From: Rhodothermales bacterium
Lineage (GTDB): Bacteria; Bacteroidota; Rhodothermia; Rhodothermales; Bin80
Assembly (NCBI GenBank): GCA_965261255.1
Contig: CBDHCQ010000004.1
Location: 3,215,559-3,279,558 of the forward strand
Direction: 5' to 3'
DNA: 64,000 nucleotides
The translations under genes and the position numbers were made by a program. Positions 42,697-64,000 of this stretch are shown in pieces (the stretch's first letter is position 1; the number at the start of each line of letters is the position of its first letter). The notes beneath the pieces are model-generated. The model saw nothing but the letters and a program-made list of their open reading frames with translations. It was not told the origin of the DNA and ran no database searches.

Positions 42697-45216
42697 TCAA
42701 TACGTCGCCACGCTTCGTTGTCCTGCGAGGAAAACAGCGTTTGCCAGCAGAAGTCGGCCGCTGTAGTAAAAGCCCCTATAGATCGGGTTATCAACGAAAT
42801 AAATGACTCCGCCTCGTCCGATCGATTCCATGCCCAGAACCAGCGAGTTGCTCAGGGCGTCCTGTGCTTCCATACCTGCGAACCCCGCAACGCGGCTACC
42901 CTCCTTGAGTACACCAACGTTCCATCCATCTTCCAGCCACGCGTAAGCTCGGCTGCTGCTCTTAAGTGTAAAGTAGTCCTGTTCGTAGCCAAATGCCAGG
43001 GGATGCGTAGTATCCAGCTCCGTGCGAAAGATAGCTCCGGTGACATCTTCGGTGATTCCATGGCGATAGCGGTCGGCGTAGGGTCGAAGCCGTACACTCA
43101 GTGAATCTTCATCCTCATCATCTTCGTTGGGTTTGATTTGCAGTCCGAAGCCGTCCTTGCCAGCAAGGAAACGAGTTGCATTGCCGAGTGAGATCAGGCG
43201 ACCACCCTCCCGAAGCCAATTCTGAATCTCTTCCAGTCGGCGCTCGCTCAAGACATCTCCGTAGCTGCCGGAAGGTAATATGATCACATCATAGCGAAAT
43301 AGCGGCAGGCTACCAAAATCGTCGCTGTTAACAAGCGTAGTACCGTACTCGAGTTGTTCATCAAAGAAATGCCATAACTCCCCGAGATTGTACGAACTGA
43401 CGGCGGGCCCCGCGACAATAGCAATACGTGGTGCACGCATAAAGACCACATCGCCTGAGCCAAAGTCAACACCTTCGGTGACGCGTGTTGTATTGACAGC
43501 GTCAACGTGCTGATTTGTGTGGCGGGCTGCCTGGATGACGAGGGAATCGAAGGCTGCCCCTGCTCCCCCACGTGTCATTATGAGCGTACCCTCGTCGTAG
43601 GATTTATTGTTGATTTTGAAGGGTACTTCTGCGTAGCGCGCCTTCACACCCTTCCGCATGAGTGCTGCAAGGAATCGGGCATCCTCAAAACTCTTCCACT
43701 CGGCCAGATAGGCGACGGGGCGCGAAGGAAGCGTTTTTGGTTCAGAAATAGCGGCGGTGGGTGCCCATGTTACCTCATCTTCCATCGCATACGCTTCCAG
43801 ACCGTACACGTACGGCAGGGCCCAGGCAGTAATGTCGTAGCTGAGCGAGTCTTCCAATTCAGCCTCGGGTTCAAAAAGTACATTGGCCAGCACACCCTTC
43901 GGCTGTGCAGCCGGAACAACAAGGTCCCCAGATTCAATACTTACACGGTCTGCGGAACCCGATTGATAGGCAAACCCATCTCCCGCGCTAGCCGTGGTTG
44001 CGAAACCGTAAGTAATTCCGAGGAGATCCAAATGATTGGCGAGTACACGAACCTTGTCCTCCTGACCTATGTTGCGCACAACATAGGCAGCATGTTCTCC
44101 ACTTGGTTGGGATGCAGCATTCTGGAAGTATTCGGCAAACTCGGTGGTGAGACGATCCCGCTGGTTTGCAGCTACCTCAATGGTGGACAGACTGGTCGTG
44201 TAGTGATGTTCTATACGATCGGAGAGTGTCAGCGTATCTCCTTCGGCTGTAATGATGCCAAGTCCTGCACGTCCTGAGCCAGCCTGTTCATAGGTCATCC
44301 CAATTGCTCCATTGAACGTGGGCCATGTATCACCATAGCCTGGATAGAAGAGGTCGAAAATCTGTCTGGTAAAGAACAACCAGCCTTCTTCATCGAAATA
44401 GCGTGCATGATTGGCTCCTATGAGCTCCTGAAACTCACGCTGCCATGACGTGATGTACGCATGGTAGGGCACCGCCGCCGGAGCAAAAAAGTAGGGACTG
44501 TTCACGCTCTGCTCATGAAAATCCACATGGACATGAGGCATCCACCGATTATAGTGTGGAAGGCGCTGACGCGTTTCGAGCTGTGTTCCCCAAGCCCAAT
44601 CCCGATTCAGGTCAAAGTAGTAGTGATTGGTTCTTCCCCCTGGCCAGGGCTCTGAGTGCTCACGCGCTTCCCCTTGCACGTTTTGCGTGTGCCCCCGTGC
44701 TTGGCGATAAAAATGGACATAGCGGTCACGACCATCCGGGTTGAGACACGGGTCGATGATAACGACGGTATTTTCGAGCCATGTCTGCACATTGGTATCC
44801 GTACTGCTTACCAGTGTATGAATTACTGCCAATGCGGCCTCCGTACCCACAGATTCATTACCGTGAACATTATAGCTGAGCCACACGAGGGCTGGGGTGT
44901 CTTCTACTGGAACTCCTTCCTGGAGGCCGGCCCGCTGCAGGTTGGCAGTACGAATTTCCTCCAGTCTTGCCATATTATCGGGCGAAGAGATGATCAGGTA
45001 CTGCAACACCCGGCTCTCGTAAGTGTGACCGTACTCAACACGATCCACGTTCCCGGCATTCTCCGCAACATGGCGGACATATTCGGTTACGCGGTGATGG
45101 GGTGTGAAACGTTCACCGAGTTCATAGCCGAGGAAATCGGCGGGGCTGCGGAGTTGTGCTTCTGCGCTGTGAACAAGGGGAATAAGTAAAAAGAAACAAG
45201 CGAGGTAGCTTTTCAT
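42697..45216 (-). CDS. M14-family zinc carboxypeptidase-like protein (large form)
   Basis: A signal peptide, then NVHGNESVGTEA (the HxxE zinc motif) and DFHE further on. 839 aa. Confidence 0.8.
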   Translation of the reverse strand: MKSYLACFFLLIPLVHSAEAQLRSPADFLGYELGERFTPHHRVTEYVRHVAENAGNVDRVEYGHTYESRVLQYLIISSPDNMARLEEIRTANLQRAGLQEGVPVEDTPALVWLSYNVHGNESVGTEAALAVIHTLVSSTDTNVQTWLENTVVIIDPCLNPDGRDRYVHFYRQARGHTQNVQGEAREHSEPWPGGRTNHYYFDLNRDWAWGTQLETRQRLPHYNRWMPHVHVDFHEQSVNSPYFFAPAAVPYHAYITSWQREFQELIGANHARYFDEEGWLFFTRQIFDLFYPGYGDTWPTFNGAIGMTYEQAGSGRAGLGIITAEGDTLTLSDRIEHHYTTSLSTIEVAANQRDRLTTEFAEYFQNAASQPSGEHAAYVVRNIGQEDKVRVLANHLDLLGITYGFATTASAGDGFAYQSGSADRVSIESGDLVVPAAQPKGVLANVLFEPEAELEDSLSYDITAWALPYVYGLEAYAMEDEVTWAPTAAISEPKTLPSRPVAYLAEWKSFEDARFLAALMRKGVKARYAEVPFKINNKSYDEGTLIMTRGGAGAAFDSLVIQAARHTNQHVDAVNTTRVTEGVDFGSGDVVFMRAPRIAIVAGPAVSSYNLGELWHFFDEQLEYGTTLVNSDDFGSLPLFRYDVIILPSGSYGDVLSERRLEEIQNWLREGGRLISLGNATRFLAGKDGFGLQIKPNEDDEDEDSLSVRLRPYADRYRHGITEDVTGAIFRTELDTTHPLAFGYEQDYFTLKSSSRAYAWLEDGWNVGVLKEGSRVAGFAGMEAQDALSNSLVLGMESIGRGGVIYFVDNPIYRGFYYSGRLLLANAVFLAGQRSVATY

Positions 45217-46961
45217 GATCCGTTGTTTTTCGAGCTATGTTCACGTAGTGCCTCAATGCGAAGTTGTCTGGTTACACGGCCGTTCCACCTGTTCTCCTCC
45301 ACATAGCATAAGATATCCAGTCCAGTCTGTTGTGCGCGGGCTTTCTCAGCGATGGCATGGTGTCGGCCCTGCCAGAAACCGATGGCATCCATGACCATAT
45401 TAGATTGTGGCTCTTTCAAGAGCATTTTCAGGTGCTGTCCTCTGCTGAGCAGACGCACGGATACCGGCTGCAATCCTTCCACATAGAAGAGTGGCGCTTC
45501 ATTCTCTTTGCCGAAGGGCTCGCAGGATTTGAGCACACGTTCAAATTTTCCGGGGATCATGGCGAGGTTCAACTGAGCATCGTACTCCAGCTGCGGCTCA
45601 ACCAATTGTTTGCCTACTTGTGAGTAAACCTCGGCATTCAGTTTTTCTTTGAAAAGGGGAAGGTCTTCTTTTTTCAAGGTAAGTCCGGCCGCCTTTTCAT
45701 GGCCTCCGAATCGGATCAACATATCCGCACAGCCTCTTATGGCATCAAGAATATGAATATCACCATGTGTACGCACACTACCGAACACTTCTTCTCCGTC
45801 CGAATTTGGAACATCGGTTAGCATTACGGCCGGGCGTCCAAATTCCCCGACCATCTGTGATGCAGCTGAGCCCAGGATGCCTGGATGCCAATCCGGATGG
45901 TGGAGTACAAGCGCACTCGTATGGGATCCAGCCAGTTGTGTTTGCGCGAGCTTCTTTGCAGTTGGGCGTAGCCGTGCTGCCTGTTTTTTTCTGTCTATGT
46001 TGAGTTCATTTAGCCGTTTGGCACAAGCCGTGGCTTCGCTCTCCGATTTTGCCATTAACAGCGCGAGTGCCTCGTCTGCATGGGCGAGTCGACCCGCAGC
46101 ATTCAGGCGGGGACCAAGCTGCATAGCGATATTACTCGCCGTCAAGTGTTCCTGCTCACAGCCGGAAACAGACGTGAGCGCCCGGAGGCCTGGGGACGGT
46201 GCTGCGCGCAGCTTTTCTATTCCCTCGCGTACCAGGATGCGGTTCTCGTCCACCAGAGGCATGATATCGCATACAGTAGAGATTGCCACGAGATCAAGGT
46301 AATCGTCCGCCAGACTGACAGGTTGACCAAGCTCTTCCAGCGTGACCTGGACCAGTTTATAGGCAAGCGCACAGGCGGATACATCTTTCAACGGGTAATC
46401 GCAACCTTCCCGTTTGGGATTTACGTGTGCGCAGCAGAACGGGTTTTTGTCTTCGTTCTGATGATGATCACAGATAATGAGATCTATACCGGCCTCCTTT
46501 GCCAATGCGGCAGTTTCCTCATCATTCGTGCCACAATCCACGACAATGATCAGGGAGCTTTCCCGAGAACGCGCAAGCTCAACACCGCTCGCATGAAAAC
46601 CGTGATTCTCTTTCTGGCGATGAGGGATGTATGATGATGTCGTTAGTCCATTGGACTGCAGATACTGCAGAATCAGGGCTGTAGAGGTAACACCATCTGC
46701 GTCAAAATCTCCATAGACGAGTACTTTTTCCTTCGTCTTAATAGCCTGTGCGATACGCCGGGCAGCAACTTCAACATCGTCCAACAAATGCGGATCATGT
46801 AGGGACGCCCGCGTTGCCCGGAAATAATGTCGCGCAGTATCCAATGAGTCAATACCTCGCAGTATCAGGAAGCGTGTCAGCGGCTTGGGTAGTGAGTTCA
46901 GCTCATCGCTGAGTGCCTGCACGACAGCTTCATCCCCTACGGAACGTTCGGTCCATAGCAT
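45213..46961 (-). CDS. recJ: Single-stranded-DNA-specific exonuclease RecJ
   Basis: DHH-family motifs YGDFDADGVTS, VDCG and ICDHHQ, plus the GGHEKAAG DHHA1 motif. ATGA overlap with the downstream M14 gene. Confidence 0.9.
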   Translation of the reverse strand: MLWTERSVGDEAVVQALSDELNSLPKPLTRFLILRGIDSLDTARHYFRATRASLHDPHLLDDVEVAARRIAQAIKTKEKVLVYGDFDADGVTSTALILQYLQSNGLTTSSYIPHRQKENHGFHASGVELARSRESSLIIVVDCGTNDEETAALAKEAGIDLIICDHHQNEDKNPFCCAHVNPKREGCDYPLKDVSACALAYKLVQVTLEELGQPVSLADDYLDLVAISTVCDIMPLVDENRILVREGIEKLRAAPSPGLRALTSVSGCEQEHLTASNIAMQLGPRLNAAGRLAHADEALALLMAKSESEATACAKRLNELNIDRKKQAARLRPTAKKLAQTQLAGSHTSALVLHHPDWHPGILGSAASQMVGEFGRPAVMLTDVPNSDGEEVFGSVRTHGDIHILDAIRGCADMLIRFGGHEKAAGLTLKKEDLPLFKEKLNAEVYSQVGKQLVEPQLEYDAQLNLAMIPGKFERVLKSCEPFGKENEAPLFYVEGLQPVSVRLLSRGQHLKMLLKEPQSNMVMDAIGFWQGRHHAIAEKARAQQTGLDILCYVEENRWNGRVTRQLRIEALREHSSKNNGS

Positions 46962-47477: not shown

Positions 47478-48557
47478 TTAAGCCTGAGCTAGCAGCCACG
47501 ACACGCGGTCACGCAGCTTGTCCTGTAGGTTGTAAATGTCGTTAATTGAATCAATAGGAATTTTTTCCCAAGAAGTGGCCCCGGATTGTATGGCTACCGC
47601 TTTCTTCTTAGAACCGAAGTAAAACCGACAAATGGCCCTCCGAGGATCGTTGTCAAGCAAGATATTGCAATACGTAACCCTGTCCATCATAACCACCCTG
47701 TCCAAGTCAACATGGCCTAGCAACACGGACTTAACAACATGATAGCCCATGATTTCATCTTCCGTAGTCACGATATCGGACTCCTGCTCAGAGCCCACAG
47801 CTTCATCAGGAACAACTTCAACTTCGTTACTATCTTCCGATTCGCTATCCAAGGCTAACTTTAATCGCTTTTGAACGCGATCATTGATGAATTCACGAAA
47901 AGCATCTTGGGCAATACCTACGAAAGACTCTCTAACTTTCTTAGTACGTTTACCCTTGTATACTTGACTAAGTATGAACAAGACAAAATCGTTGCTCGGC
48001 CTCTTCAGTTGGTCAGCCAATACCTGCTTAATGGATGTAATGTATTTTACGTTGGTTGCAACATGAATTGATGATTCCAGGTCAAAGGCCGACTTTGTGA
48101 AGATTTTCAGACTCTTGGCAGCCCTCTCTGTCACGTCTTCAAGGAGACTGAATTCCATGAAGGGACTTCCATCCATCCTGTTCGGTTCATCGAGGTCGGA
48201 ATAAAAGCGGTAGAGTAAGCCATTTGTCAGAATACCAAATCTTGCTTCCGTCGCAGTGAAGTAGCGGTACAATTGGGTCGCATTTTCCTGAGATAACTCG
48301 GAATCAGACGGCTTGCACTCAATTAGTAGAATTGGTGCTCCATCCTTGATTATGGCGTAATCAACCTTCTCCCCCTTCCGTTGACCAACGTCAGCGTGAT
48401 ATTCAGGAACTACTTCTGTAGGGTCAAACACGTCATATCCTAACGCGCCAATAAACGGCAATACAAGAGCCGTCTTGGTGGCTTCCTCGGATTGTGCGTG
48501 GCCAGCAATTGATTCCGCACGAGAACCAAGCGTGCGAAGTCTGTCAATGAAGTCCAT
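47478..48557 (-). CDS. HsdR_N-like PD-(D/E)xK nuclease-fold protein (type I restriction enzyme R N-terminal domain family)
   Basis: EEATKTALVLPFIGALGYD, then KVDYAIIKDGAPILLIECK (a D..E-x-K core), then FGILTNGLLYRFY. It is a stand-alone gene. Confidence 0.65.
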   Translation of the reverse strand: MDFIDRLRTLGSRAESIAGHAQSEEATKTALVLPFIGALGYDVFDPTEVVPEYHADVGQRKGEKVDYAIIKDGAPILLIECKPSDSELSQENATQLYRYFTATEARFGILTNGLLYRFYSDLDEPNRMDGSPFMEFSLLEDVTERAAKSLKIFTKSAFDLESSIHVATNVKYITSIKQVLADQLKRPSNDFVLFILSQVYKGKRTKKVRESFVGIAQDAFREFINDRVQKRLKLALDSESEDSNEVEVVPDEAVGSEQESDIVTTEDEIMGYHVVKSVLLGHVDLDRVVMMDRVTYCNILLDNDPRRAICRFYFGSKKKAVAIQSGATSWEKIPIDSINDIYNLQDKLRDRVSWLLAQA

Positions 48558-52509: not shown

Positions 52510-53999
<1,490 letters not shown>

Positions 54000-54251
54000 T
54001 TAAGACAGATTTTGTTAGGTGGAAAGTTACGCAACTCTGCAACAGGCACGTATAATAATCGGAACACGCTCTCCCGAACCGCGGGCTTTAACGAGGCTCA
54101 GGCAAAATGGCTTCATTGTAATTCTTCGCATAACAAGCTCAATTGGATCTAACCCGTATAGGCTTTATTACTCTGAACGAATCATTGTAACCCGGTGTTT
54201 ACTTTTTGCTGGAGTGTTTCCGGTTCTCCATTCACACTAGATCAATTGAAC

Positions 54252-56735
54252 ATGCGTCTCTTAACCTTATCACTACTGCTAATTTGTCTGCCCGCGTACG
54301 GGCAGGGAGTGCAGTCCATTACCGAGAAAACAAAGGACATGGACAAACGGGACGGCTTCTTTCCCGTGTACTGGCATTCGGATACCGGTGAAATCTATCT
54401 TGAAATTCCTGCACTGAATCAGGAGTTCATCTATGTAACTTCCATGCCTGCAGGGTTGGGATCCAACGACATTGGATTAGACAGAAGCCAGTTAGGCAGT
54501 ACGCGCTTGGTCCGGTTTGAGCGTAGCGGGCCCAAGATTCTTCTCGTTATGCCGAATCTGCGCTATCGTGCTGATTCAGAATCAGCAGCAGAGAAAGCCT
54601 CCGTCAGTGAGGCTTTTGCGGAAGCCATCCTCTGGGGATTCAAGGTTGAGGCCGAGGAAGAAAACAGAATCCTTGTAAATGCGACAGATTTCGTTGTTAG
54701 AGATGCCAACGGAGTTACTCGCAGGTTACGGGGGGCGCAACAAGGTAATTTCAGTCTGGACAAGAATCGAAGCGCTCCCGTTCCAGATATGCTTAAGGCC
54801 TTCCCGCACAATACCGAGATGGAAGCCCGAATAACGTTCACGTCTGATGCTCCAGGCCGCTTCGTACGTGATGTGGCAGCTGATCCATATTCGGTGACCC
54901 TAAGCGTGCGACACTCATTTGTTATGCTGCCCGATGAAGGGTACACTCCCAGAGTGTTTCATCCGGGAGCCGGGTACGGTGCAATAAGCTACATGGATTA
55001 TGCAGCGCCCATCGGAGAAGATATGGTGAAGCGCTACATTCGGCGTCATCGCCTGATAAAGGCGGATTCAAGTGCGGTAGTCAGCGACCCCGTGTCACCC
55101 ATTGTGTACTATCTGGATCCAGGGACACCCGAACCGGTCAGGGGAGCGCTCCTGGATGGCGCCCGATGGTGGTCAGATGCATTTGAAGCAGCTGGCTTCT
55201 CCAATGCTTTTCAGATTGAAATATTGCCGGATGGAGCAGACCCAATGGATGTACGCTACAATACGATTCAGTGGGTGCACCGTGCTACACGCGGCTGGAG
55301 TTACGGATCAAGTGTGACAGACCCCCGCACCGGTGAGATCATCAAGGGGCACGTGTCGCTCGGTTCACTCAGGGTCCGACAAGACTACCTTATCGCCGAA
55401 GGGCTCCTTGCTCCCTACGGTGACTCACTCACAGCCGACGATTCAATGTTGTCCATGTCGCTCGCACGTATCCGACAGCTGTCTGCTCACGAGGTCGGAC
55501 ACACGCTTGGCCTCAGCCATAATTTTGCGTCCTCTGTCAACGCTCGGGCGTCCGTTATGGACTATCCTGCCCCATATGCCCTGTTTAATGAAGCCGGAGA
55601 GATCCAGTTGGATGGGGCCTACTCAACCGGTATCGGAGAGTGGGACAAGGTTGCCATTGCCTATGGGTATGCTCAGCCGTTACCAAGTGACAGCGAAGAG
55701 GGGCTACTGAGCGCAATCCTGCAGCAGGCCTGGAATCGTGGCTTGCATTATATCACCGACGCCGATGCACGTCCCGCCGGTGCAGCGCATCCACTCGCCA
55801 ACCTCTGGGACAATGGTGACGATATGGTAAGTGCCCTTCAGCACGAAATGGCGATCAGGGATGCTGCTCTGGCGCGTTTTGGTCAAGAGGTTATACGTAA
55901 AGGACGTCCACTGGCAACCATGGAGGAAGTGCTGGTCCCACTCTACCTGCGACACAGGTATCAGGTGGAGGCTACCGTCAAATTACTGGGCGGAGTAACC
56001 TACACCTATGCGATGCGTGGAGACAGTCAGGCACTGGTCGAGCCGGTTACGGGTTCGGTGCAACTGGCAGCGTTGGAAGCATTGTTGGAGGCAGTTTCGC
56101 CGGAGGCTCTTCGCGTCCCGGAAAGTGTCCGAACCGGCATGCCTCCCCGCCCACCTGGGTTTTCGGCGCATCGCGAGTTGTTTGATCGCCACACGGGCCT
56201 GACCTTTGATGCTTACACGCCTGCTGCTGCGGTTGCTACGCTGGTATTTGCTCAGATCCTCAATCCAGCGCGCACAGCCCGTATGACGTATCAGCGTGAC
56301 CACGACGACACCCTTCCGGATTTTCATGGCGTTATGGAGATTGTGAGCGACGCAGTCTGGGGAATACCTGTTGCGGATGATCCGTACGATGCCGAACTGC
56401 AGCGCGTAGTGCAACAGGTGTGGATTGATGAATTGATTGGATTGGCAAATGAGCGTGATGCCGCCCCCGCGGTGCGGGTGATGGTTATGGAACGGCTTCG
56501 TGAGTTCAGTGAGTGGCTCGCGGAGGCTGAGGTGCCCCGGCAGGATACAGAAACCCGCTATCATCGCAGGATGGTACTGGATCAAATTGAGCAATACCTC
56601 TTGAGAGAGTACAGCCCTGATGACCGCCGGCCCCGTACAGTGATGCCACCGGGCTCTCCGATCGGCGCTGACGTACGCCGCCAAACGCATCATGCGCTAC
56701 TCTCAGCCACTGCAGTTGAGTGGTGCAGCCACTGA
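54252..56735 (+). CDS. Secreted zinc metalloprotease (zincin, DUF4953/DUF5117-like)
   Basis: Signal peptide MRLLTLSLLLICLPAYGQ and the HEVGHTLGLSHNF HExxH motif. I chose the ATG at 54252. Confidence 0.75.
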   Translation: MRLLTLSLLLICLPAYGQGVQSITEKTKDMDKRDGFFPVYWHSDTGEIYLEIPALNQEFIYVTSMPAGLGSNDIGLDRSQLGSTRLVRFERSGPKILLVMPNLRYRADSESAAEKASVSEAFAEAILWGFKVEAEEENRILVNATDFVVRDANGVTRRLRGAQQGNFSLDKNRSAPVPDMLKAFPHNTEMEARITFTSDAPGRFVRDVAADPYSVTLSVRHSFVMLPDEGYTPRVFHPGAGYGAISYMDYAAPIGEDMVKRYIRRHRLIKADSSAVVSDPVSPIVYYLDPGTPEPVRGALLDGARWWSDAFEAAGFSNAFQIEILPDGADPMDVRYNTIQWVHRATRGWSYGSSVTDPRTGEIIKGHVSLGSLRVRQDYLIAEGLLAPYGDSLTADDSMLSMSLARIRQLSAHEVGHTLGLSHNFASSVNARASVMDYPAPYALFNEAGEIQLDGAYSTGIGEWDKVAIAYGYAQPLPSDSEEGLLSAILQQAWNRGLHYITDADARPAGAAHPLANLWDNGDDMVSALQHEMAIRDAALARFGQEVIRKGRPLATMEEVLVPLYLRHRYQVEATVKLLGGVTYTYAMRGDSQALVEPVTGSVQLAALEALLEAVSPEALRVPESVRTGMPPRPPGFSAHRELFDRHTGLTFDAYTPAAAVATLVFAQILNPARTARMTYQRDHDDTLPDFHGVMEIVSDAVWGIPVADDPYDAELQRVVQQVWIDELIGLANERDAAPAVRVMVMERLREFSEWLAEAEVPRQDTETRYHRRMVLDQIEQYLLREYSPDDRRPRTVMPPGSPIGADVRRQTHHALLSATAVEWCSH

Positions 56736-56745
56736 AACGTCCTAC

Positions 56746-58857
56746 ATGATGTCAAAATTGAAGAACCCGGCAAACCTGAGGGAAGTGGCGACTCGTTATC
56801 TCTGCGATGCGGTAGGGAACGAGCAGGCGGAATTTCGTGACGGGCAATGGGAGAGTATTGAACATGCCGTAAAGGGAGAACGGGTTCTGGTTGTCCAGCG
56901 AACGGGTTGGGGGAAGACGATGGTCTATACTGTTGCAACCAAGATCAGGCGGGAAAAAGGCCTGGGACCGTCGCTGATGATATCTCCGCTGCTTGCGCTG
57001 ATGCGTAATCAGGAAGAAGCAGCGTTTGCGCTTGGGCTCAAGGCACGCAGGATGACGGGCGACAATTTTGGGGATTGGGAAAAGATTCGGAAGGAACTCC
57101 GAAAAGATGAGGTGGATATCCTCATGATCACGCCCGAACGGTTGGCAAGCGGCCATTTTACCCGGAGCACGCTGCCACTGATCACAAGGGGCCTGGGAAT
57201 GCTGATCATAGATGAGGCCCACTGCATATCGGATTGGGGACATGATTTCCGTCCAGATTATCGGCGTATTCGCAGGGTTCAGCAGGCTATTCCGAAAGGA
57301 GCTGCCATTGTTGCCACGACTGCTACAGCGAACGACCGCGTCGTCCAGGATGTACGGCGGCAACTGGGCGGAGATATTCAGGTTAGTCGCGGGAGCTTGG
57401 TCCGGCGCAGTCTACAACTTCACAATCTTACGCTGCCTGATCCCAAAGTGAGACTGGCATGGATAGCACAGGTGGTGCCACGCCTTTCGGGAAGTGGAAT
57501 CATTTATGTCCTTACACGTAAGGATGCGGACCTTGTCTCTTCCTGGCTTCGGTACAAGGGGATCCAAGCGGCATCTTACTACGGTAACGCAGGTCAACGG
57601 GAAGAGTTGGAACAACAACTCCTGAACAACGAGATCAAGGCCCTGGTTGCGACTATCGCCTTGGGAATGGGTTTTGATAAACCTGACCTGAAGTTCATTA
57701 TTCATTACCAGAGACCTGGGTCAGCTGTGCATTACTACCAACAGGTGGGACGAGCAGGACGAGGAATTGATGATGCCTACGGTTTTCTGCTTTGGGGGGA
57801 AGAGGATGAGCGTATCGTTGATTACTTCATGGACAATGCCTTCCCCCCTCAGAATGAGATCAATCAAGTGCTCGATGTGCTCGAGAATGCGGATGGCGGT
57901 TTAGAGATTGATGCAATCATGGCGGCTGTTAATCTAAAGAAATCCAAGATCGAGAAGGTGCTGAAGCTCGCCTCTCTTGAGTCCCCCGCACCGGTTATTC
58001 AGCAGGGGCGGGAATGGTATGCAACTGGTGAAGCCGGTGGTTTCAAGGTTGATCCAGAGTACATTGCCCGGCTAAGGAGAGTTCGCGCATCTGAGAAAGC
58101 ACAGATGCGTAAATACATGCGTCACAGTGGATGCCTTATGGCATTTTTGCAACGGGCCCTAGATGATGATTCTGCGAAAGACTGCGGCCGTTGTCGGAAC
58201 TGTATGAACAGGGCCAACAAGTCTCACCAGCCCAAACCGGAGTTGGTAATTGAGGCAGAACAATTCATCAAAAAACGACGGTATGCTATATCGCCCCACC
58301 GTGAGTGGCCAATCGCAGAAATCTCGGATCATCCCATTCACGAACGCGGCATCACGATTGACAAAGCTCATCGTATGCTGCCGGGGTTTGCGCTTTGCAG
58401 AGCTTTCGATATGGGGCTTGGTGATCAGATTTTGAGGGAGCGAAATTATGGAAACCAGTATTCAAAGATAGTGGTGGATGCGTTCGTGAACAGGTTACAG
58501 GAATGGGCTAAGAATAAAGGAATTGGATGCGTAACCTATGTGCCTCCACGTAACAACCGGCGGCATGTGCCGCTCTTGGCAGCGGCAGTTGCTGAGCAAC
58601 TTGGAAGACCCCTGGTTCACGCTGTTGCGAGGACCGGCGAGGGGGCACGGCAGAGTGATCAGAAAAATGAGGTGCAGCGTGCTCTTAATGTGGCCAATGC
58701 ATTTATGATCGAAAGATCCTGCAAACAGTCAACGCTCCTGATCGATGATATAAGTGTCAGTGGTTGGACAATGGTCACGGCTTCAGCGCTGTTACGCCAT
58801 GATGGATGTCCAAGCGTACGACCAGTAGCCTTGGTCAAACATAGCTTGTCTGGATGA
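56746..58857 (+). CDS. RecQ-like SF2 helicase fused to a C-terminal ComF/PRTase-like domain
   Basis: Helicase motifs QRTGWGKT (I), IIDEAHCISDWGHDFRPDY (II), ATTATA (III) and YYQQVGRAGRG (VI). A RecQ-type Cys cluster CLMAF...CGRCRNC follows. The C-terminal 180 aa have the ComF/PRTase pattern VTYVPPR...NVANAF...TLLIDDISVSGWT. The ATG at 56746 is 10 nt after the upstream stop. Confidence 0.8.
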   Translation: MMSKLKNPANLREVATRYLCDAVGNEQAEFRDGQWESIEHAVKGERVLVVQRTGWGKTMVYTVATKIRREKGLGPSLMISPLLALMRNQEEAAFALGLKARRMTGDNFGDWEKIRKELRKDEVDILMITPERLASGHFTRSTLPLITRGLGMLIIDEAHCISDWGHDFRPDYRRIRRVQQAIPKGAAIVATTATANDRVVQDVRRQLGGDIQVSRGSLVRRSLQLHNLTLPDPKVRLAWIAQVVPRLSGSGIIYVLTRKDADLVSSWLRYKGIQAASYYGNAGQREELEQQLLNNEIKALVATIALGMGFDKPDLKFIIHYQRPGSAVHYYQQVGRAGRGIDDAYGFLLWGEEDERIVDYFMDNAFPPQNEINQVLDVLENADGGLEIDAIMAAVNLKKSKIEKVLKLASLESPAPVIQQGREWYATGEAGGFKVDPEYIARLRRVRASEKAQMRKYMRHSGCLMAFLQRALDDDSAKDCGRCRNCMNRANKSHQPKPELVIEAEQFIKKRRYAISPHREWPIAEISDHPIHERGITIDKAHRMLPGFALCRAFDMGLGDQILRERNYGNQYSKIVVDAFVNRLQEWAKNKGIGCVTYVPPRNNRRHVPLLAAAVAEQLGRPLVHAVARTGEGARQSDQKNEVQRALNVANAFMIERSCKQSTLLIDDISVSGWTMVTASALLRHDGCPSVRPVALVKHSLSG

Positions 58858-60176
58858 TCATGACCTGGCCCCTGTCCGACGATACCAATGTGACTTTGCT
58901 TCTATGTGCCTGGTTCGGTGGAGAACAGGAGCATAAGCCTCTCACATTACCGGAATATAATCTGCTGGCGACATGGCTTCACCAAAATGACCATCGTCCA
59001 ATGGACTTGGTTCGGGGCTCATGTGCTGAGAATGCGGCACAAGAGACGCGCCTTGGCCACCATCGGATATCCGGGCTTCTGGAGCGCAGGATTACTTTGG
59101 GATTTCACCTTGAAGAGTGGCAGCGCAGAGATTTTTGGATCCTTGGCCGCGGGGATGCAGCGTATCCGAAGAGAATAAAACAGTCCATGAAGTCACAGGC
59201 ACCCCCAGTCCTGTTCGGGACCGGGGAAGTAACGATCATTGATCAGGGCGGCACAGCGATTGTTGGACCGGAGGGGGCAACGCAGCAGTCAGCGGAAAGC
59301 GTCCAACAGCTGGCAAAATTTTATGCAGAGAATGGTAATGCAATAATTGTTGCTGGGAGACAGTCTATTGGGGAAAATGCGGTCAAGAGTGCTCTTGATG
59401 CTAAGGGATCCGTTATATGGGTGCTCCAGGGAGATGAACTAAGTATACCCTTGGAAAAACCAGTTCGCAGATCCAGGACGGCCGGAGACACGGTTTTGCT
59501 ATCTAGTCGCAGTCCCGTTGATAAACGGCCATTGAGCGAAGAGCCACAAGTGGGACAAATGCTGATGACGTTGTGTGATTCGGTAGTCTATGTGGATAGC
59601 TCAGAGATCAGTACGGACCGGTATTGCGTGGAATTGGCCGTGCGTGAATTTGTTGGATTGAGAAAGTGCTTTGTGCATGTTAGTGGAGAGCCTACAGAAT
59701 CCGCGTTCGAGTTAACCGACTCCGGCGCGGAGTTTTGGAAAAAAGAGTCGCTTGAGATCAGCGACGAGTCTCTTGAAGTGCAGCCGGAAGTGACTGAGGG
59801 CTCGCCAGAACGCTCAGATACAAGCGAGCAAGAGCCCACACAGGCCGACGATCCCGATCCTGAGATCAAATTGAGCGAGGCGGCAGCGTCGCAATCAATT
59901 GATCAGGAAAGTAGCTCGGAAGAGGTAAGCGAATCGGAAGCGGTACACACTGAATCCGATGATGAAGTAAAGCAGGAGCCCCAGACAGAGACTGGGGATA
60001 ATCGAGGAGATTCCCCTCTCTACAGAGAATGCATTCAAGGCGAATTGTTTGAACTGGACGAGGTGTCGACAGGCAGAGAGGAAAACATCGAGGATGATGA
60101 CGACGAAGTCGACATACTCGCGACAACAGACTCGAGCGCCCAGATCGACTTGTTTAGCTCCATTACCGATGAGTGA
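58854..60176 (+). CDS. Divergent DprA/Smf (SLOG Rossmann)-like protein with a ~150-aa polyacidic C-terminal tail
   Basis: YPKRI...APPVLFGTGE...TAIVGPEGAT...NGNAIIVAGRQSIGENAVKSALDAKGSVIWVL...VLLSS...LCDSVVYVDSS follows the DprA Rossmann-core topology, but the canonical GSR and GxD motifs are altered. ATGA overlap with the helicase stop. The tail is rich in E, D and S. Confidence 0.6.
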   Translation: MIMTWPLSDDTNVTLLLCAWFGGEQEHKPLTLPEYNLLATWLHQNDHRPMDLVRGSCAENAAQETRLGHHRISGLLERRITLGFHLEEWQRRDFWILGRGDAAYPKRIKQSMKSQAPPVLFGTGEVTIIDQGGTAIVGPEGATQQSAESVQQLAKFYAENGNAIIVAGRQSIGENAVKSALDAKGSVIWVLQGDELSIPLEKPVRRSRTAGDTVLLSSRSPVDKRPLSEEPQVGQMLMTLCDSVVYVDSSEISTDRYCVELAVREFVGLRKCFVHVSGEPTESAFELTDSGAEFWKKESLEISDESLEVQPEVTEGSPERSDTSEQEPTQADDPDPEIKLSEAAASQSIDQESSSEEVSESEAVHTESDDEVKQEPQTETGDNRGDSPLYRECIQGELFELDEVSTGREENIEDDDDEVDILATTDSSAQIDLFSSITDE

Positions 60177-61068
60177 TTTGCCGGCCGATGATGCCCGTGC
60201 AGTGCTTTTGCTATGCGCATTTCAGGGAGGTGAAAAGAAGCACCATCCACTAGAGCTTGCGGAGTATAACCGTGTGGCCACCATCCTTTATCGGCGTCAA
60301 AAGAGACCCGCGTTTCTCCTTGGTGATGCACCGGTGAATGAAATTGCCAGAAGCGCCCAAGTTAATCCTGCCCGACTTCAATGGCTCCTTGATCGTCGGA
60401 TCAATCTGGGATTTTGTCTGGAAGAGTGGCAGCGAAAAGGTTTTTGGATCTTTGCCCGAAGCGATAAAGAATATCCGGCAAGAATTCGAAGCAGGATGCG
60501 CATAGAAGCACCGTCGTTGATCTTTGGTACAGGACATAAGACGCTTCTGACGAACGGGGGATTAGCTATTATCGGGCCTGATCAGATCCCGCTGGGCCGG
60601 TCAAGAAAAGCCTGTGAAGCTGCGAGAGAGGCCGTAGAGAAGGGGCAGACCGTCATTGTGACGGGACACCTAAAGATGGCGAAAGACCTTGTGAATGTAG
60701 CCCTGGAACACTCAGGGTGTGTTATTTGGGTATTGCATGATGGATCACTTAGGCAGCGCCTCGAGAAACGTAATCGTCAAGCACTTAGCAGGGGACAAAT
60801 GGTTCTCATTACGGTGCAGAGTCCAGAAGCTCCACAGAAATCTGGTGATCGAGGATTCGTTGGATCATTGGCAACAGCGTTGGCTGATGAGCTGCTCTAT
60901 GTGGATGGTTCAAAAAACAGCAATGATCAGTTTAGGACAGCTTCTGCGGCTCTTGGGTTTGCCAAAACCGCGGACCATTTTCTGCGGTCGAAACTGTTTA
61001 GGTTATTGGTTGGACGTAAAGTTTCTCAAACAGCCGAACAGCTTAAGGAGCTCGGTGCGGGGGCGTAG
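60169..61068 (+). CDS. Second divergent DprA/Smf (SLOG)-like paralog
   Basis: It aligns along its length with the previous protein (LLLCAF/LLLCAW, EEWQRKGFWIF/EEWQRRDFWIL, YPARI/YPKRI, LAIIGP/TAIVGP, CVIWVL/SVIWVL, LLYVDGS/VVYVDSS). The ATG at 60169 overlaps the upstream stop by 8 nt. Confidence 0.6.
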   Translation: MSDLPADDARAVLLLCAFQGGEKKHHPLELAEYNRVATILYRRQKRPAFLLGDAPVNEIARSAQVNPARLQWLLDRRINLGFCLEEWQRKGFWIFARSDKEYPARIRSRMRIEAPSLIFGTGHKTLLTNGGLAIIGPDQIPLGRSRKACEAAREAVEKGQTVIVTGHLKMAKDLVNVALEHSGCVIWVLHDGSLRQRLEKRNRQALSRGQMVLITVQSPEAPQKSGDRGFVGSLATALADELLYVDGSKNSNDQFRTASAALGFAKTADHFLRSKLFRLLVGRKVSQTAEQLKELGAGA

Positions 61069-62071
61069 TTGACTGTATCACGCTGAAATGGTCGTGTCCT
61101 GCTGGCACCAACGGTTCAACGGAGTCATCTGTTCGATGAAGCAAGATGTCTTTTTCCGTGATGACTCCAATCGTGTAAAAGGATTTCGGATTCGCCTTTT
61201 GTAGGTCATGCGCCGAAGCTGTGAAGAGTAATTCATAATCATCTCCGCCGTTGAGAGCATAATCAACTGAACCCCGCTCGAGAACGGACGCAGCCATCAG
61301 TGCTTTGGACAGCGGTAGTCTGGATTCCCATATCGTGGCTCCACACCCCGACGCTGCGCAAATATGATGTAACTCATTCGCCAATCCGTCCGAGATATCA
61401 ATGAGGGCGGAGGGGCGTATGCCCTGGGAGGCCCATTCTTTAACAAGATCTAATCGGGGGTTTGGCCGTAGGTGACGAGCGACAAGAAAATCCCAAGCCT
61501 TTGATCCAATTGCCTCGGGTTTGATTCCCTGCCGCAGAATATCCAGCCCTGCAGCGGCATCCCCCAGGGTTCCGCTCACGCATATCCTGTCACCTGGTCG
61601 GGCACCGTTTCTGTAGACGATTTCTGACGCCTTGGCTTCACCAATAACCGTAATGGTAAGCATTAGAACGGGTGCACGTGTGGTGTCTCCGCCTGCAATC
61701 TGCACCCCGTGCACGGAAGCACCAGCCGCAAGGCCTCTATAGAGCGCTTCCAGGTTTTCCATGGACACAGATCCGGGTATCCCGAGTGCTATCGTAGCCA
61801 GAACAGGGCGAGCGTTCATCGCAGCAATATCACTGAGGTTGACGGCCATGGCCTTATAGCCAGCGTCCTCCATACTGTAGAACCCAAAATCGAAATGATA
61901 TCCTTCGATCAGGGCATCTGTTGTCACCACCTGTACCCTATCGTGATTGGAGCGATAAACTGCCGCATCGTCACCGATCCCCGCAATAATCGGCGGTTCA
62001 ACATTCGGGGAACCAATTGAGGTCAGTTGATGGATCAGATTGAACTCCCCGGCCTGCTCAATACTGGACAT
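61043..62071 (-). CDS. thiL: Thiamine-monophosphate kinase
   Basis: IGDDAAVY, VVTTDALIEGYHF and AIR-synthase-like GGD motifs. I chose the ATG at 62071. The 3' end overlaps the convergent DprA-like gene by 26 nt. Confidence 0.85.
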   Translation of the reverse strand: MSSIEQAGEFNLIHQLTSIGSPNVEPPIIAGIGDDAAVYRSNHDRVQVVTTDALIEGYHFDFGFYSMEDAGYKAMAVNLSDIAAMNARPVLATIALGIPGSVSMENLEALYRGLAAGASVHGVQIAGGDTTRAPVLMLTITVIGEAKASEIVYRNGARPGDRICVSGTLGDAAAGLDILRQGIKPEAIGSKAWDFLVARHLRPNPRLDLVKEWASQGIRPSALIDISDGLANELHHICAASGCGATIWESRLPLSKALMAASVLERGSVDYALNGGDDYELLFTASAHDLQKANPKSFYTIGVITEKDILLHRTDDSVEPLVPAGHDHFSVIQSTTPPHRAP

Positions 62072-62213
62072 GGCTTCTGGAGGTGATGATTGGCAGCCGC
62101 CTATCAAGATGCACCAGTTTGGGTGGGACACTTGTTCTGTCCGCGCATTTGCAATTACGTTCGTGCATCTGCATTTCTTGATGTATAAAACTGTGCCCGG
62201 CTGATACCGTGAT

Positions 62214-63629
62214 TCACGGTGGAGCTTCAATTTTCAGTGCTTTCCAGCCGAATTTGTTCTTTTTTCGATTGAAACTGAAAACCCGAAGTGCGCTCACTGG
62301 CTTGCCGTTCATATCCTCCTGGATCAGGGCTGGGGGCACGAAAGTGTTATCGACGAAACCGAACCCCTTCTCAAGGACCATTAAGACTCCCTGTGTATGA
62401 TCGACATCTTCCATGTCTTCTGGATCACAGGGCACAGCAGCAATGACGGTTTCGTCTTCTGCAGACAATGTCAGACGCACATAGTCTCCAGGTTTGGGGG
62501 GAGCTTTCGAATCAAAAACGCTCAACCTGACGGGAAAAGTTTTGTCTCTGTTTAGATATGCACCAAAACCCTTTCCCGAGTTATGGAGGTTCTCAACAAT
62601 GGCTACTCGGTTTATTTGTTTTCCGAACAAGTAATTTGAAGCGGTGGCTGCCTGTTTTTGCAGAAAAGGTGTAAGCAGGTCTAAATCAACCTTCTCATTA
62701 TACCAAGTCTCATTGATGAGCCGTTCCATATCGGCTTTTATGTTCCATCCGTTGCTGATGTAGCAGTCCACTGCGCGCTTAACACACATGGATGCTTCAT
62801 CTTCAAATTTCTGTGTTACCAGCAACGGTGCAATTTCTTTGAGCGCAGGTAACGCAAACGTATAATCCCCATGCACACAACAGATAGCTTTTGAGAACAA
62901 CACGATGGCCGCAACCGGATCTTCTTCCTGGAACGTCATTGCTAGCGTATGCCAAGCCCATGACTCACTTTGCTTTTTCCTCAAAACTGGTAAGATATAC
63001 TCTCTTGCCTGGGCAAACTTCTTGGAGAAAATCAGACACTTAGCTTCATCATAGTCCAACCAAATTCGATTTTTCTTGTCCTTTGCTTCCTGTCTGGTTT
63101 TGGCGAAAATCTCACAAATTTGGTCTATCGTCAGTTGCTGCCGAATATTCTCATTCTCGAGCCACGCCTTTGCTACCTTCCTCGCAAACTTGAACATTAA
63201 GCTCGGCAACTCTCCTTTTGGAGACAAGTAGGGCTCCTTATCTTTATCTTCAAAAAGATCATCTAAGCGTCTGACTGACAGAAGTATTAGCTTCGGTAAG
63301 TGTTCAAGGTTTTTGTTGAACTGAAGAATCAGAGTGCGATATTCAATGCCGCCGGATGGGATATTCAGCCACTCAATCCAATCAAGAAAAGATTCAATAT
63401 GCTGTAGCTCACCTGGATTGGGCGTGTGATCACCATTGTTCTCTATCGCGCGTTGCTTGATTCCGTTTTGTATTTCCTTCAAGTATGCGTAGCACACCCA
63501 GAATAGAGCCCCCTTAGCATACTGGTCTTGGGGATTCGCCTCTGCTTCCGGACGGGCAAGCTCCCAAGCCTCTGCCAATCTCCCGGACTTACGAAGATTG
63601 GTAATTTTTTCGTTCAGTTGCCTTTCCAT
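62214..63629 (-). CDS. Hypothetical protein with a helical-repeat (TPR-like) body and a C-terminal cold-shock/OB-like domain
   Basis: The last ~70 aa have a CSD-like pattern (GVLMVLEKGFGFVDNTFVPPALI...VSALRVFSFNRKKNKFGWKALKI). The first ~330 aa are predicted helical with a repeat character. The region looks AT-richer than its neighbours. Confidence 0.5.
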   Translation of the reverse strand: MERQLNEKITNLRKSGRLAEAWELARPEAEANPQDQYAKGALFWVCYAYLKEIQNGIKQRAIENNGDHTPNPGELQHIESFLDWIEWLNIPSGGIEYRTLILQFNKNLEHLPKLILLSVRRLDDLFEDKDKEPYLSPKGELPSLMFKFARKVAKAWLENENIRQQLTIDQICEIFAKTRQEAKDKKNRIWLDYDEAKCLIFSKKFAQAREYILPVLRKKQSESWAWHTLAMTFQEEDPVAAIVLFSKAICCVHGDYTFALPALKEIAPLLVTQKFEDEASMCVKRAVDCYISNGWNIKADMERLINETWYNEKVDLDLLTPFLQKQAATASNYLFGKQINRVAIVENLHNSGKGFGAYLNRDKTFPVRLSVFDSKAPPKPGDYVRLTLSAEDETVIAAVPCDPEDMEDVDHTQGVLMVLEKGFGFVDNTFVPPALIQEDMNGKPVSALRVFSFNRKKNKFGWKALKIEAPP

Positions 63630-64000
63630 TCGAGAAATCGGTCTTGAATTGATTCAATGTCTTTACTGAGTCCGCCCCTACGACCTGGATCCTGCTGATA
63701 ACACCCTTTTTAGAGCTTGAAGCGTCCGCTGGCACATCAATCTCCAGTTTAACTTTCCCGGCATCATGTTCCGCAATTAGGTAAACCCTGTATTTATTTT
63801 CATCTGCTGATAAAATATTCCAGTTTCTGGCGGACAAATGATTCTCGAGAATCCCCACGGCCTCTGCTATATTCTTTTCCTTGAAAATTGGGGGAGTAGC
63901 AAGCAGTGTTTTGATTTCGCTTGCAAGCTCCGGTGAGCCTTCCTTAACGCGAACCCAACCAAGGGACACTTCATATTTATTGTTGTAAGAAAAACCCACA
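63589..64000 (-). CDS. Hypothetical protein; 5' end probably outside the window
   Basis: The frame is open to the window edge, it overlaps the downstream gene start by 41 nt, and I recognised no motif. Confidence 0.35.
   Translation of the reverse strand, partial: VGFSYNNKYEVSLGWVRVKEGSPELASEIKTLLATPPIFKEKNIAEAVGILENHLSARNWNILSADENKYRVYLIAEHDAGKVKLEIDVPADASSSKKGVISRIQVVGADSVKTLNQFKTDFSNGKATERKNYQSS

Follow-up and report, generated by a model that had tools for sequence, protein, structure and literature searches.

A PsyrTA (RqlHI)-type operon with two degenerate DprA-fold partner genes in a clade of Rhodothermales

The DNA we investigated, referred to below as the window, is a stretch of 64,000 nucleotides from a Rhodothermales bacterium (contig CBDHCQ010000004.1, positions 3,215,559 to 3,279,558). 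It contains a compact operon of three plus-strand genes: the first (gene 1, psyrT) encodes a RecQ-like helicase fused to a phosphoribosyltransferase (PRTase) domain, and the other two (gene 2, psyrA-long; gene 3, psyrA-short) encode paralogs with the fold of DprA. The locus is best read as a chromosomally fixed toxin–antitoxin (TA) module of the PsyrTA (RqlHI) abortive-infection type in a three-gene form. PsyrTA itself is known; what is new here is the occurrence of two separate degenerate antitoxins, in a single Rhodothermales clade.

A PsyrT gene followed by two PsyrA paralogs

The operon begins immediately behind a Met-zincin gene, whose TGA stop codon (56733-56735) is separated by 10 nt from the ATG of gene 1 at 56746, as read from the sequence. 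Genes 1 and 2 overlap by the ATGA at 58854-58857. Gene 2 has a second in-frame ATG at 58860, which fits the start of its homologues ('M.WPLSDD') equally well; the coupling between genes 1 and 2 is tight whichever start is used. Genes 2 and 3 overlap by 8 nt (ATGAGTGA, 60169-60176), and the end of the thiL open reading frame (ORF) at 61043 results in a 26-nt convergent overlap with gene 3. These junctions and overlaps are as given in a first-pass annotation of the window, which had described three coupled plus-strand genes between a metalloprotease gene and thiL. A scan of positions 53500-62500 for promoters and terminators returned counts equal to those in shuffled sequences (7 versus 7.5, and 9 versus 8.2), using a consensus that is ill-suited to Bacteroidota-type promoters.

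The product of gene 1 matches the PADLOC model for PsyrT (PDLC03928) from end to end (788.5 bits, E 1.3e-237; residues 13-700 on profile positions 6-685 of 689). Pfam recognizes DEAD (92 bits) and Helicase_C (52 bits), and gives weak matches under the cut-off for RecQ_Zn_bind (16.6 bits, residues 447-486) and Pribosyltran (15.2 bits). The protein passes the threshold of the recQ_fam model TIGR00614 (235.7 bits, cut-off 219.8) and does not reach those of TIGR01389, the equivalog model for RecQ proper (258.7 bits, cut-off 640), or of the comF model TIGR00201 (26.9 bits, E 4e-6, cut-off 233.55). In an alignment of 28 PsyrT sequences from several phyla the Walker A motif, the DEAH box, motif VI and the four cysteines are invariant or nearly so, as are residues D667, D668, S672, W674 and T675 of the phosphoribosyl pyrophosphate (PRPP) loop. 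The gene 1 protein retains all of the invariant and near-invariant residues, including the Asp-Asp...SGWT loop. Homology shows gene 1 to encode PsyrT, a predicted RecQ-like 3'-5' helicase with the PRTase as its putative toxic, genotoxic effector.

Russell & Mulvey (2015) described RqlH as a RecQ-like helicase whose C-terminal PRTase is the toxic domain, tied the PRTase and its residue D663 to toxicity by experiment, and reported that the DprA-like partner RqlI physically binds and restrains RqlH (PMC4670107). Millman et al. (2022) equated PsyrTA with RqlHI and counted it among the systems identified as involved in phage resistance. PsyrT-like proteins number at least 8000 at E <= 1e-30; with a single exception, the 120 best matches listed are about 700 aa long. 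The fused PRTase, which the first-pass annotation had regarded as an uncharacterised architecture, is the defining feature of the PsyrT/RqlH family; it is already described in both of these publications and holds no novelty. The RecQ core, cysteine cluster and PRTase-like domain recognized in that annotation agree with the Pfam matches and the family alignment.

Both downstream genes match the PADLOC PsyrA profile of 398 positions, gene 2 with 185 bits (E 4.7e-55; residues 4-366 on positions 2-369) and gene 3 with 152.7 bits (E 3.9e-45; residues 7-227 on positions 5-229); together with the PsyrT match these scores bear out the relation to PsyrTA that was proposed initially. The Pfam family DNA_processg_A (PF02481) accepts gene 2 (47.9 bits) and narrowly misses gene 3 (27.7 bits, cut-off 29.6), and the dprA model TIGR00732 gives 40.3 bits for gene 2 and 19.1 bits for gene 3, with a cut-off of 191. 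When a profile built from the gene 3 family was searched against the PDB, it matched DprA (3uqz, E 5.6e-14), ShosA (9vzo, E 6e-13) and the DprA of H. pylori. The AlphaFold2 (AF2) model of gene 3 has a predicted local distance difference test score (pLDDT) of 92.9 and a predicted template modeling score (pTM) of 0.90. Its best Foldseek match is ShosA (8zva; template modeling (TM) score 0.69, E 4.9e-11); S. pneumoniae DprA (3uqz) is matched with TM scores of 0.65-0.70, and LOG and MoCo-carrier proteins are weak matches. The superposition on ShosA and DprA spans about 300 columns, which comprise the SAM-like and the Rossmann domains. The gene 2-like module 1 of the fusion protein P0166, which is 76% identical to gene 2, is modeled with a pLDDT of about 90. 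The SLOG/DprA fold is therefore present, in the sense of a SAM-like N-terminal domain plus an alpha/beta domain of Rossmann type that can be superposed on DprA and ShosA. Homology and fold show genes 2 and 3 to be PsyrA antitoxin paralogs of SAM-like plus DprA-Rossmann fold, as their assignment to the DprA topology at first pass had implied.

Loss of the Rossmann pocket and divergence in charge

About 70 ordinary PsyrA proteins from many phyla share four near-invariant motifs inherited from DprA: VGSR, SGGA[RK]G[VI]D..AM, AM.RN[KR].IY and KGGTW.GA.E. All four of these pocket motifs are lost in both paralogs and in their orthologues, which thereby differ from DprA and ordinary PsyrA alike; the replacements (Table 1) include the GPE/GPD and AGRQSIGE/TGHLKMAKD segments noted at first pass. 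The arginine of GSR is replaced by Glu in gene 2 and by Asp in gene 3, and RN[KR] is replaced by VGQ and VGS, respectively. The arginines of these two motifs correspond to R52 and R143 of HpDprA and to R139 and R234 of ShosA, where charge reversal of R139/R234 abolishes both the binding of single-stranded DNA (ssDNA) and the antitoxin activity, and where the dimer and its arginines are essential to antitoxin function (PMC12961424).

The extent of the erosion was counted over the columns that are at least 80% conserved in other PsyrA, 16 of them N-terminal and 56 in the Rossmann domain. Gene 2 retains 14/16 and gene 3 15/16 of the N-terminal columns, compared to 6-16 in four ordinary PsyrA that include divergent Firmicutes and Actinobacteria. 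Of the Rossmann columns, 23/56 are retained in gene 2 and 21/56 in gene 3, compared to 43-56 in the same four proteins. The erosion is selective, with the N-terminal domain retained and the Rossmann columns lost.

The C-terminal winged-helix-like segment of ordinary PsyrA ('...WLK.AV.EG...KPVRY') is absent from both paralogs: in gene 2 it is replaced by a 140-residue acidic tail with a net charge of -41, and gene 3 ends where the Rossmann domain ends. In RqlI the helix-turn-helix (winged helix) is dispensable and residues 1-320 suffice, with the N-terminal 84 residues being required (PMC4670107), which suggests that the two paralogs correspond to the minimal functional antitoxin.

The paralogs also differ in charge (pI 4.3 for gene 2; pI 9.9 and net +14 for gene 3). 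In every species of the clade psyrA-long is acidic (pI 4.3-5.7) and psyrA-short basic (8.7-10.5); the median for ordinary PsyrA is 8.4. The linker of P0166 that is equivalent to the gene 2 tail has a pLDDT of about 30 in the AF2 model and is predicted to be disordered. Of the two 'LF' motifs in the tail, the QGELF sequence is conserved across the clade, either at the end of psyrA-long or in its linker. Among ordinary PsyrA (L003-L080), 21 of 69 have [LM]F within the final 10 residues (e.g., ..ELFD, ..NLF and ..TLFDGHD), versus 3.3% of random 10-residue windows. The terminal [LM]F motif may be a docking peptide.

Table 1. Genes, domains and motifs of the operon and its flanks (window positions)
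Feature	Position	Strand	Remarks
Gene 1, psyrT (rqlH-like)	56746..58857	+	703 aa; RecQ-family helicase, Zn-Cys cluster, predicted C-terminal PRTase effector domain
SF2/RecQ helicase core, aa 28-357	56827..57816	+	Pfam DEAD, Helicase_C; motif residues invariant in 28-sequence alignment
Walker A, TGWGKT	56902-56919	+	helicase core of gene 1
DEAH	57211-57222	+	helicase core of gene 1
Motif VI, QQVGRAGR	57739-57762	+	helicase core of gene 1
Four-Cys cluster C463, C480, C483, C486	58132..58203	+	RecQ-type zinc-binding region; invariant in family alignment
PRTase domain core, aa 611-699	58576..58842	+	predicted toxic effector; covered by PsyrT profile; Pribosyltran and comF matches below cut-off
PRPP loop, LLIDDISVSGWT	58735-58770	+	in PRTase domain of gene 1
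Gene 2, psyrA-long	58854..60176	+	440 aa; acidic DprA-fold paralog
Gene 2 SAM-like N-domain	58854-59123	+	
Gene 2 degenerate Rossmann domain	59124-59753	+	
Gene 2 GPE	59265-59273	+	in place of VGSR
Gene 2 AGRQSIGE	59352-59375	+	in place of SGGA[RK]G[VI]D
Gene 2 PQVGQMLM	59544-59567	+	in place of AM.RN[KR].IY
Gene 2 SEISTDRYCVE	59601-59633	+	in place of KGGTW.GA.E
Gene 2 acidic disordered tail	59754-60173	+	
'LF' motif IQGELFELDE	60033-60062	+	gene 2 acidic tail
Terminal 'LF' motif QIDLFSSITDE	60141-60173	+	gene 2 acidic tail
Gene 3, psyrA-short	60169..61068	+	299 aa; basic DprA-fold paralog
Gene 3 SAM-like N-domain	60169-60435	+	
Gene 3 degenerate Rossmann domain	60436-61065	+	no winged helix, no tail
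Gene 3 GPD	60574-60582	+	degenerate pocket motif
Gene 3 TGHLKMAKD	60661-60687	+	degenerate pocket motif
Gene 3 GFVGSLAT	60853-60876	+	degenerate pocket motif
Gene 3 KNSNDQFRTA	60913-60942	+	degenerate pocket motif
Met-zincin gene	54195..56735	+	846 aa; Pfam DUF5118 + DUF5117 + DUF4953; upstream flank, left border of insertion site
thiL-like AIRS gene	61043..62071	-	Pfam AIRS + AIRS_C; convergent; downstream flank, right border of insertion site

Distribution, inheritance and fusion of the partner genes

We surveyed PsyrT-anchored loci in a one-genome-per-species collection; the best 80 of more than 599 loci were used and constitute a sample, and all ORFs of these loci were searched for partners with phmmer and with a hidden Markov model built from the partners. 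A second PsyrT scan with a Providencia query returned mostly the same contigs and about 13 new loci. Outside the Rhodothermales clade exactly one PsyrA ORF was found at about 72 of 78 loci in the first survey and at 53 of 58 in the second, and none of the approximately 90 PsyrT loci in these best-80 scans has two. Among the loci surveyed, two PsyrA ORFs follow PsyrT solely in those from Rhodothermales (L001, L002, L081-L096). The duplication and divergence of the partner gene pointed out at first pass are real and not the norm of the family; what matches the PADLOC models end to end is PsyrT, and not the two-partner layout.

The loci without PsyrA in the first survey comprise three at which the contig ends less than 1 kb from PsyrT, one at which it ends about 1.4 kb downstream, and L076 and L080. 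The latter two encode an actinobacterial PsyrT with no PsyrA-like ORF in approximately 6 kb downstream (L076/L154 and L080/L158), which agrees with the published remark that rqlH frequently occurs without rqlI, above all in Gram-positive bacteria (PMC4670107). The homologues of gene 3 form about 35 clusters, all of which carry Rhodothermaceae or Bacteroidetes names. At least 6 of the 16 clade records (L081-L096) bear isolate names typical of sponge or coral metagenome bins (CAR3_bin, RHO1_bin, IRC3_bin, SB0661_bin, bin80, Plut_); going by these names only, some of the bacteria that carry the three-gene operon may be host-associated symbionts.

Synteny was assessed at loci anchored on Met-zincin, each of which was scored for all five genes. 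In 15/15 informative species, whose Met-zincin is at least 74% identical, the genes for Met-zincin, PsyrT, PsyrA-long and PsyrA-short occur in that order, and in most of the closest loci (L081-L087, also L090-L091) thiL follows psyrA-short in convergent orientation. In Salinibacter and Salinivenus, whose Met-zincin is 54-55% identical, the Met-zincin gene directly adjoins thiL in convergent orientation, and PsyrTA is absent from the interval. This adjacency suggests that the operon was inserted once in the ancestor of the clade and was then inherited vertically. A universally conserved syntenic position, named in the first-pass annotation as a finding that would count against its reading, holds within the clade, where the operon is fixed rather than a variable island, and not beyond it, since the same site is empty in these two genera.

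The history of the genes within the clade is consistent with this picture. The identity of PsyrT declines in step with that of Met-zincin, and both psyrA copies are retained in all species examined, down to a PsyrT identity of about 64%. Synonymous divergence is similar in all five genes, and dN/dS amounts to 0.04-0.11 for Met-zincin, 0.07-0.14 for PsyrT, 0.26-0.33 for PsyrA-long, 0.19-0.32 for PsyrA-short and 0.12-0.19 for thiL. These ratios point to purifying selection on all three operon genes. In a neighbour-joining (NJ) tree of the Rossmann cores the modules of the clade group together, apart from about 70 other PsyrA, and fall into two subclades, one long and one short, that each mirror the order of the species. 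This suggests one old duplication in the ancestor of the Rhodothermales clade.

In several members of the clade the long gene is fused to a second module. At L085, L086 and L116 it encodes 729 aa, in which an acidic linker joins module 1 to a complete module 2 of the short-like type, and a separate short gene is still present downstream; at L092 and L093 the second module of the fused gene lacks the N-domain. For the natural fusion P0166 (729 aa), AF2 predicts both modules with a pLDDT of about 90 and a disordered linker, and the pTM is 0.47. Short paralogs added to an alignment of second modules were placed on module 1 by MAFFT, and the alignment without them was used. In one species of the clade (genome OZ241874.1; L120 1375-6907, the same locus as L093) restriction–modification (RM) genes and an IS66 transposase are located between the fused psyrA-long and psyrA-short. 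The insert encodes a type II C5 methyltransferase (PADLOC MTase_II/DrmMII, 319 bits) and a type II restriction enzyme with HATPase_c_3 (314 bits), and psyrA-short still abuts thiL despite the insertion.

The same genome encodes a lone PsyrT paralog, P0029 (L118 8001-10121), which is 52% identical to gene 1 and has no adjacent PsyrA gene. In its PRPP loop (LLLDGLTHTGWT) the second Asp, at the position of RqlH D663, is replaced by Gly. The substitution suggests that P0029 carries a detoxified PRTase that needs no antitoxin.

Proteins with two PsyrA modules also occur elsewhere. A HMMER scan with gene 3 against 1.84 billion representatives found 1582 relatives at E <= 1e-3, of which we examined the best 150. 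These include proteins of 577-744 aa in which module 1 has all four motifs and module 2 is degenerate, and a few partly degenerate single-module PsyrA-type proteins of other lineages. Two of the fusions, P0212 (L181 5001-7202) and P0249 (L182 5001-7010), are encoded directly after a full-length PsyrT with an intact PRTase loop; P0207 (L180 6001-7998), from a Rhodothermales genome, follows a gene for a MazG-like pyrophosphatase, with no PsyrT. The fusions at L180-L182 are 665-733 aa long; L180 and L181 also contain an SSB gene on the opposite strand. In the NJ tree the second modules of the canonical-plus-degenerate fusions form a clade separate from the Rhodothermales modules. A shared origin of the Rhodothermales modules with the fused PsyrA found elsewhere was rejected on this placement, which involves long branches and is weak evidence. 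Judging from the tree, the presence of two PsyrA modules per PsyrT appears to have arisen at least twice, which strengthens the idea that PsyrA acts as a dimer and at the same time lowers the uniqueness of the layout in the window. Among the approximately 95 PsyrT-anchored loci and the sets of modules that we examined, the Rhodothermales clade is the only one in which the partners are encoded by two separate genes and both modules are degenerate. We found no published description of a fused two-module PsyrA of the P0212 and P0249 type.

Other genes in the window resemble components of defence systems. Just beyond thiL, a 471-aa ORF on the minus strand (62214-63629) aligns end to end with PADLOC PDC-M16B (584 bits) and contains the Pfam domains DUF7017 and S1CSD-TOTE-2, the latter known from TOTE conflict systems. 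The adjoining ORF on the same strand (63589-63999), which runs off the end of the window, matches the C-terminus of PDC-M16A, and the region 62214-63999 is a candidate PDC-M16/TOTE defence system. Farther upstream, a 359-aa ORF on the minus strand (47478-48557) that adjoins recJ (45213-46961) resembles the N-terminal domain of type I restriction R-subunits (Pfam HSDR_N, HSDR_N_2); this ORF has no PADLOC match, and no R-M genes were seen adjacent to it.

Interpretation and comparison with known systems

We consider it likely that a live PsyrT is held in check by the pair of DprA-fold proteins through protein contact, probably as a heterodimer, and that canonical ssDNA binding was given up. The two paralogs would jointly restrain PsyrT by direct contact, mainly via the conserved N-terminal domain, with the acidic/basic heterodimer most likely taking the place of the DprA/ShosA homodimer. 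A heteromer in place of a homodimer is suggested by the natural fusions, the strict co-retention of the two genes, their opposite charge and their translational coupling; the retention of psyrA-short beside thiL despite the RM/IS66 insertion is counted as a further clue. Since neither paralog retains the winged helix or the pocket motifs, among them the two arginines that bind ssDNA, canonical ssDNA binding was probably abandoned, which casts doubt on the earlier proposal that the partners sense ssDNA. DNA sensing, if any, would be left to the helicase. The acidic disordered tail of psyrA-long with its LF motifs might tether the protein, mimic DNA or provide a docking peptide, and the PRTase would be set free once the antitoxins are released or lost, for instance when a phage infects the cell.

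Several points weigh against this interpretation. The toxicity, neutralisation, stoichiometry and DNA binding of the three-gene variant are all inferred, and the pTM of the P0166 model lends no support to a defined packing of the two modules. The short paralog, being basic, may retain a non-specific affinity for nucleic acid. A fixed, vertically inherited operon with a PsyrT under housekeeping-like constraint is atypical for defence and fits a domesticated role equally well. Finally, the statement that the locus works like PsyrTA is a shallow one as regards mechanism and trigger. A more far-reaching version, in which PsyrA is here an obligate heterodimer of pocket-dead DprA-fold pseudo-receptors, one acidic and one basic, that no longer reads ssDNA and has a rewired trigger, is possible but doubtful. 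The LF-tipped acidic tail of the long paralog would in this case be, for example, a DNA mimic or a decoy for phage proteins, with the helicase keeping contact with DNA.

An alternative explanation is that the operon is a domesticated genome-maintenance module, in which a RecQ-like helicase and two DprA-fold partners act as a housekeeping repair or recombination factor with no role in TA or defence. This reading draws on the occurrence of the operon at the same site in all informative species with a divergence that tracks its neighbours, on a dN/dS of PsyrT that equals those of Met-zincin and thiL at similar dS, and on the gap of only 10 nt to the upstream protease gene, with which the operon may be co-transcribed. 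The frequent occurrence of rqlH without rqlI (PMC4670107) and the lone PsyrT paralog in a clade genome point in the same direction. However, the toxic PRTase loop is intact in gene 1, whereas in the lone P0029 the second Asp is Gly, and this difference suggests that the partners are kept because the toxin is live. Moreover, comparison with Salinibacter and Salinivenus shows the operon to be inserted, defence genes have gathered at the locus and within it, and an addictive TA module can likewise become fixed by vertical inheritance. We therefore regard domestication as unlikely. It is less probable still that one PsyrA does all of the work and the other is a relic drifting toward loss. Although the conserved motifs of the family are absent from both copies, and gene 3 covers barely more than the first half of the PsyrA profile and falls just under the Pfam cut-off, both copies are present in every species examined, both are under purifying selection (dN/dS 0.19-0.33) and gene 3 is predicted to fold with high confidence. 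The charge split between the copies is systematic, and short-like modules were further duplicated and fused.

We give very little credence to the remaining possibility, a new ssDNA-sensing module akin to the ComFA/ComFC/DprA transformation machinery whose DprA-like partners detect incoming ssDNA, an analogy drawn at first pass. The likeness exists only at the level of domains (a helicase, a ComF-like PRTase and the DprA fold), and a competitive ssDNA-sensing model was proposed for the related ShosTA (PMC12961424). Against this, all competence-family models score far under their cut-offs, so that the resemblance is a distant one; both paralogs have Glu/Asp and Val-Gly in place of the ssDNA-binding arginines, and the long paralog is strongly acidic. 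Assignment of the operon to ComF/DprA competence was rejected on the curated cut-offs of TIGR00201 and TIGR00732.

The reading of the locus as a PsyrTA module restrained by a DprA-fold pair is of interest because PsyrTA/RqlHI is widespread and validated as a TA and anti-phage system. The clade represents a natural experiment, in which the partner was split in two, the essential N-terminal domain was kept, and the ssDNA pocket and winged helix were discarded. Its proteins could show whether neutralisation of PsyrT needs DNA binding, as it does for ShosA, and whether PsyrA works as a dimer. If the notion of a pocket-dead heterodimer is true, they would provide a natural separation-of-function mutant that sets the PsyrT-restraining part of PsyrA apart from its infection-sensing part. 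The locus also illustrates that a TA or defence module can be fixed and vertically inherited across a whole clade. As the system is not of a new kind, its value is comparative and mechanistic rather than categorical.

Among known systems the operon is closest to PsyrTA/RqlHI (Sberro 2013; Russell & Mulvey 2015; Millman et al. 2022). The toxin has the same length and architecture, with a RecQ-like helicase, a Cys cluster and a C-terminal PRTase, and a DprA-like partner with conserved N-terminal domain is encoded immediately downstream on the same strand. Unlike that system, the operon has two partner genes instead of one, the first acidic with a long disordered tail and the second basic; unlike ordinary PsyrA, neither partner has the four motifs of the Rossmann pocket or a C-terminal winged helix; and, unlike the patchily distributed PsyrTA, the operon is a fixed chromosomal feature of an entire clade. 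Toxicity, neutralisation and phage protection were established for PsyrTA/RqlHI in experiments on E. coli RqlHI (PMC4670107) and on the system of Millman et al. In the PsyrTA literature, surveyed mostly by title and abstract, we found no description of a three-gene or motif-less variant. The P0212 and P0249 loci resemble the operon in that each PsyrT is accompanied by a pair of PsyrA-type modules of which one or both are degenerate, which suggests a recurrent pseudo-dimer; however, their modules are part of one polypeptide, module 1 is canonical, and their origin appears to be independent in the NJ tree.

ShosTA likewise combines a toxin containing a PRTase domain with an antitoxin of SAM-plus-Rossmann DprA fold (PMC11961720, PMC12961424). 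However, ShosT consists of PPase and PRTase domains without a helicase, and ShosA, unlike the pair proposed here, forms a homodimer, depends on the arginines that bind ssDNA and does not bind ShosT. The PADLOC ShosA model gives 22.7 bits for gene 2 and 12.5 bits for gene 3, far below their PsyrA scores, and the ShosT model finds no match among the operon proteins. With DprA, which mediates recombination in natural transformation, the two paralogs share the two-domain SAM-like plus Rossmann fold, but they have lost the GSR, SGxAxGID and RNR motifs and are encoded after a toxin gene, with no competence context. In contrast to ComFA/ComFC, a RecQ-family helicase and the PRTase form one polypeptide, and the neighbours are a protease gene and thiL rather than a competence operon. 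In its toxin and in the fold and position of its partners the locus is of the PsyrTA kind, from which it departs in the number of partner genes and in the sequence hallmarks of PsyrA.

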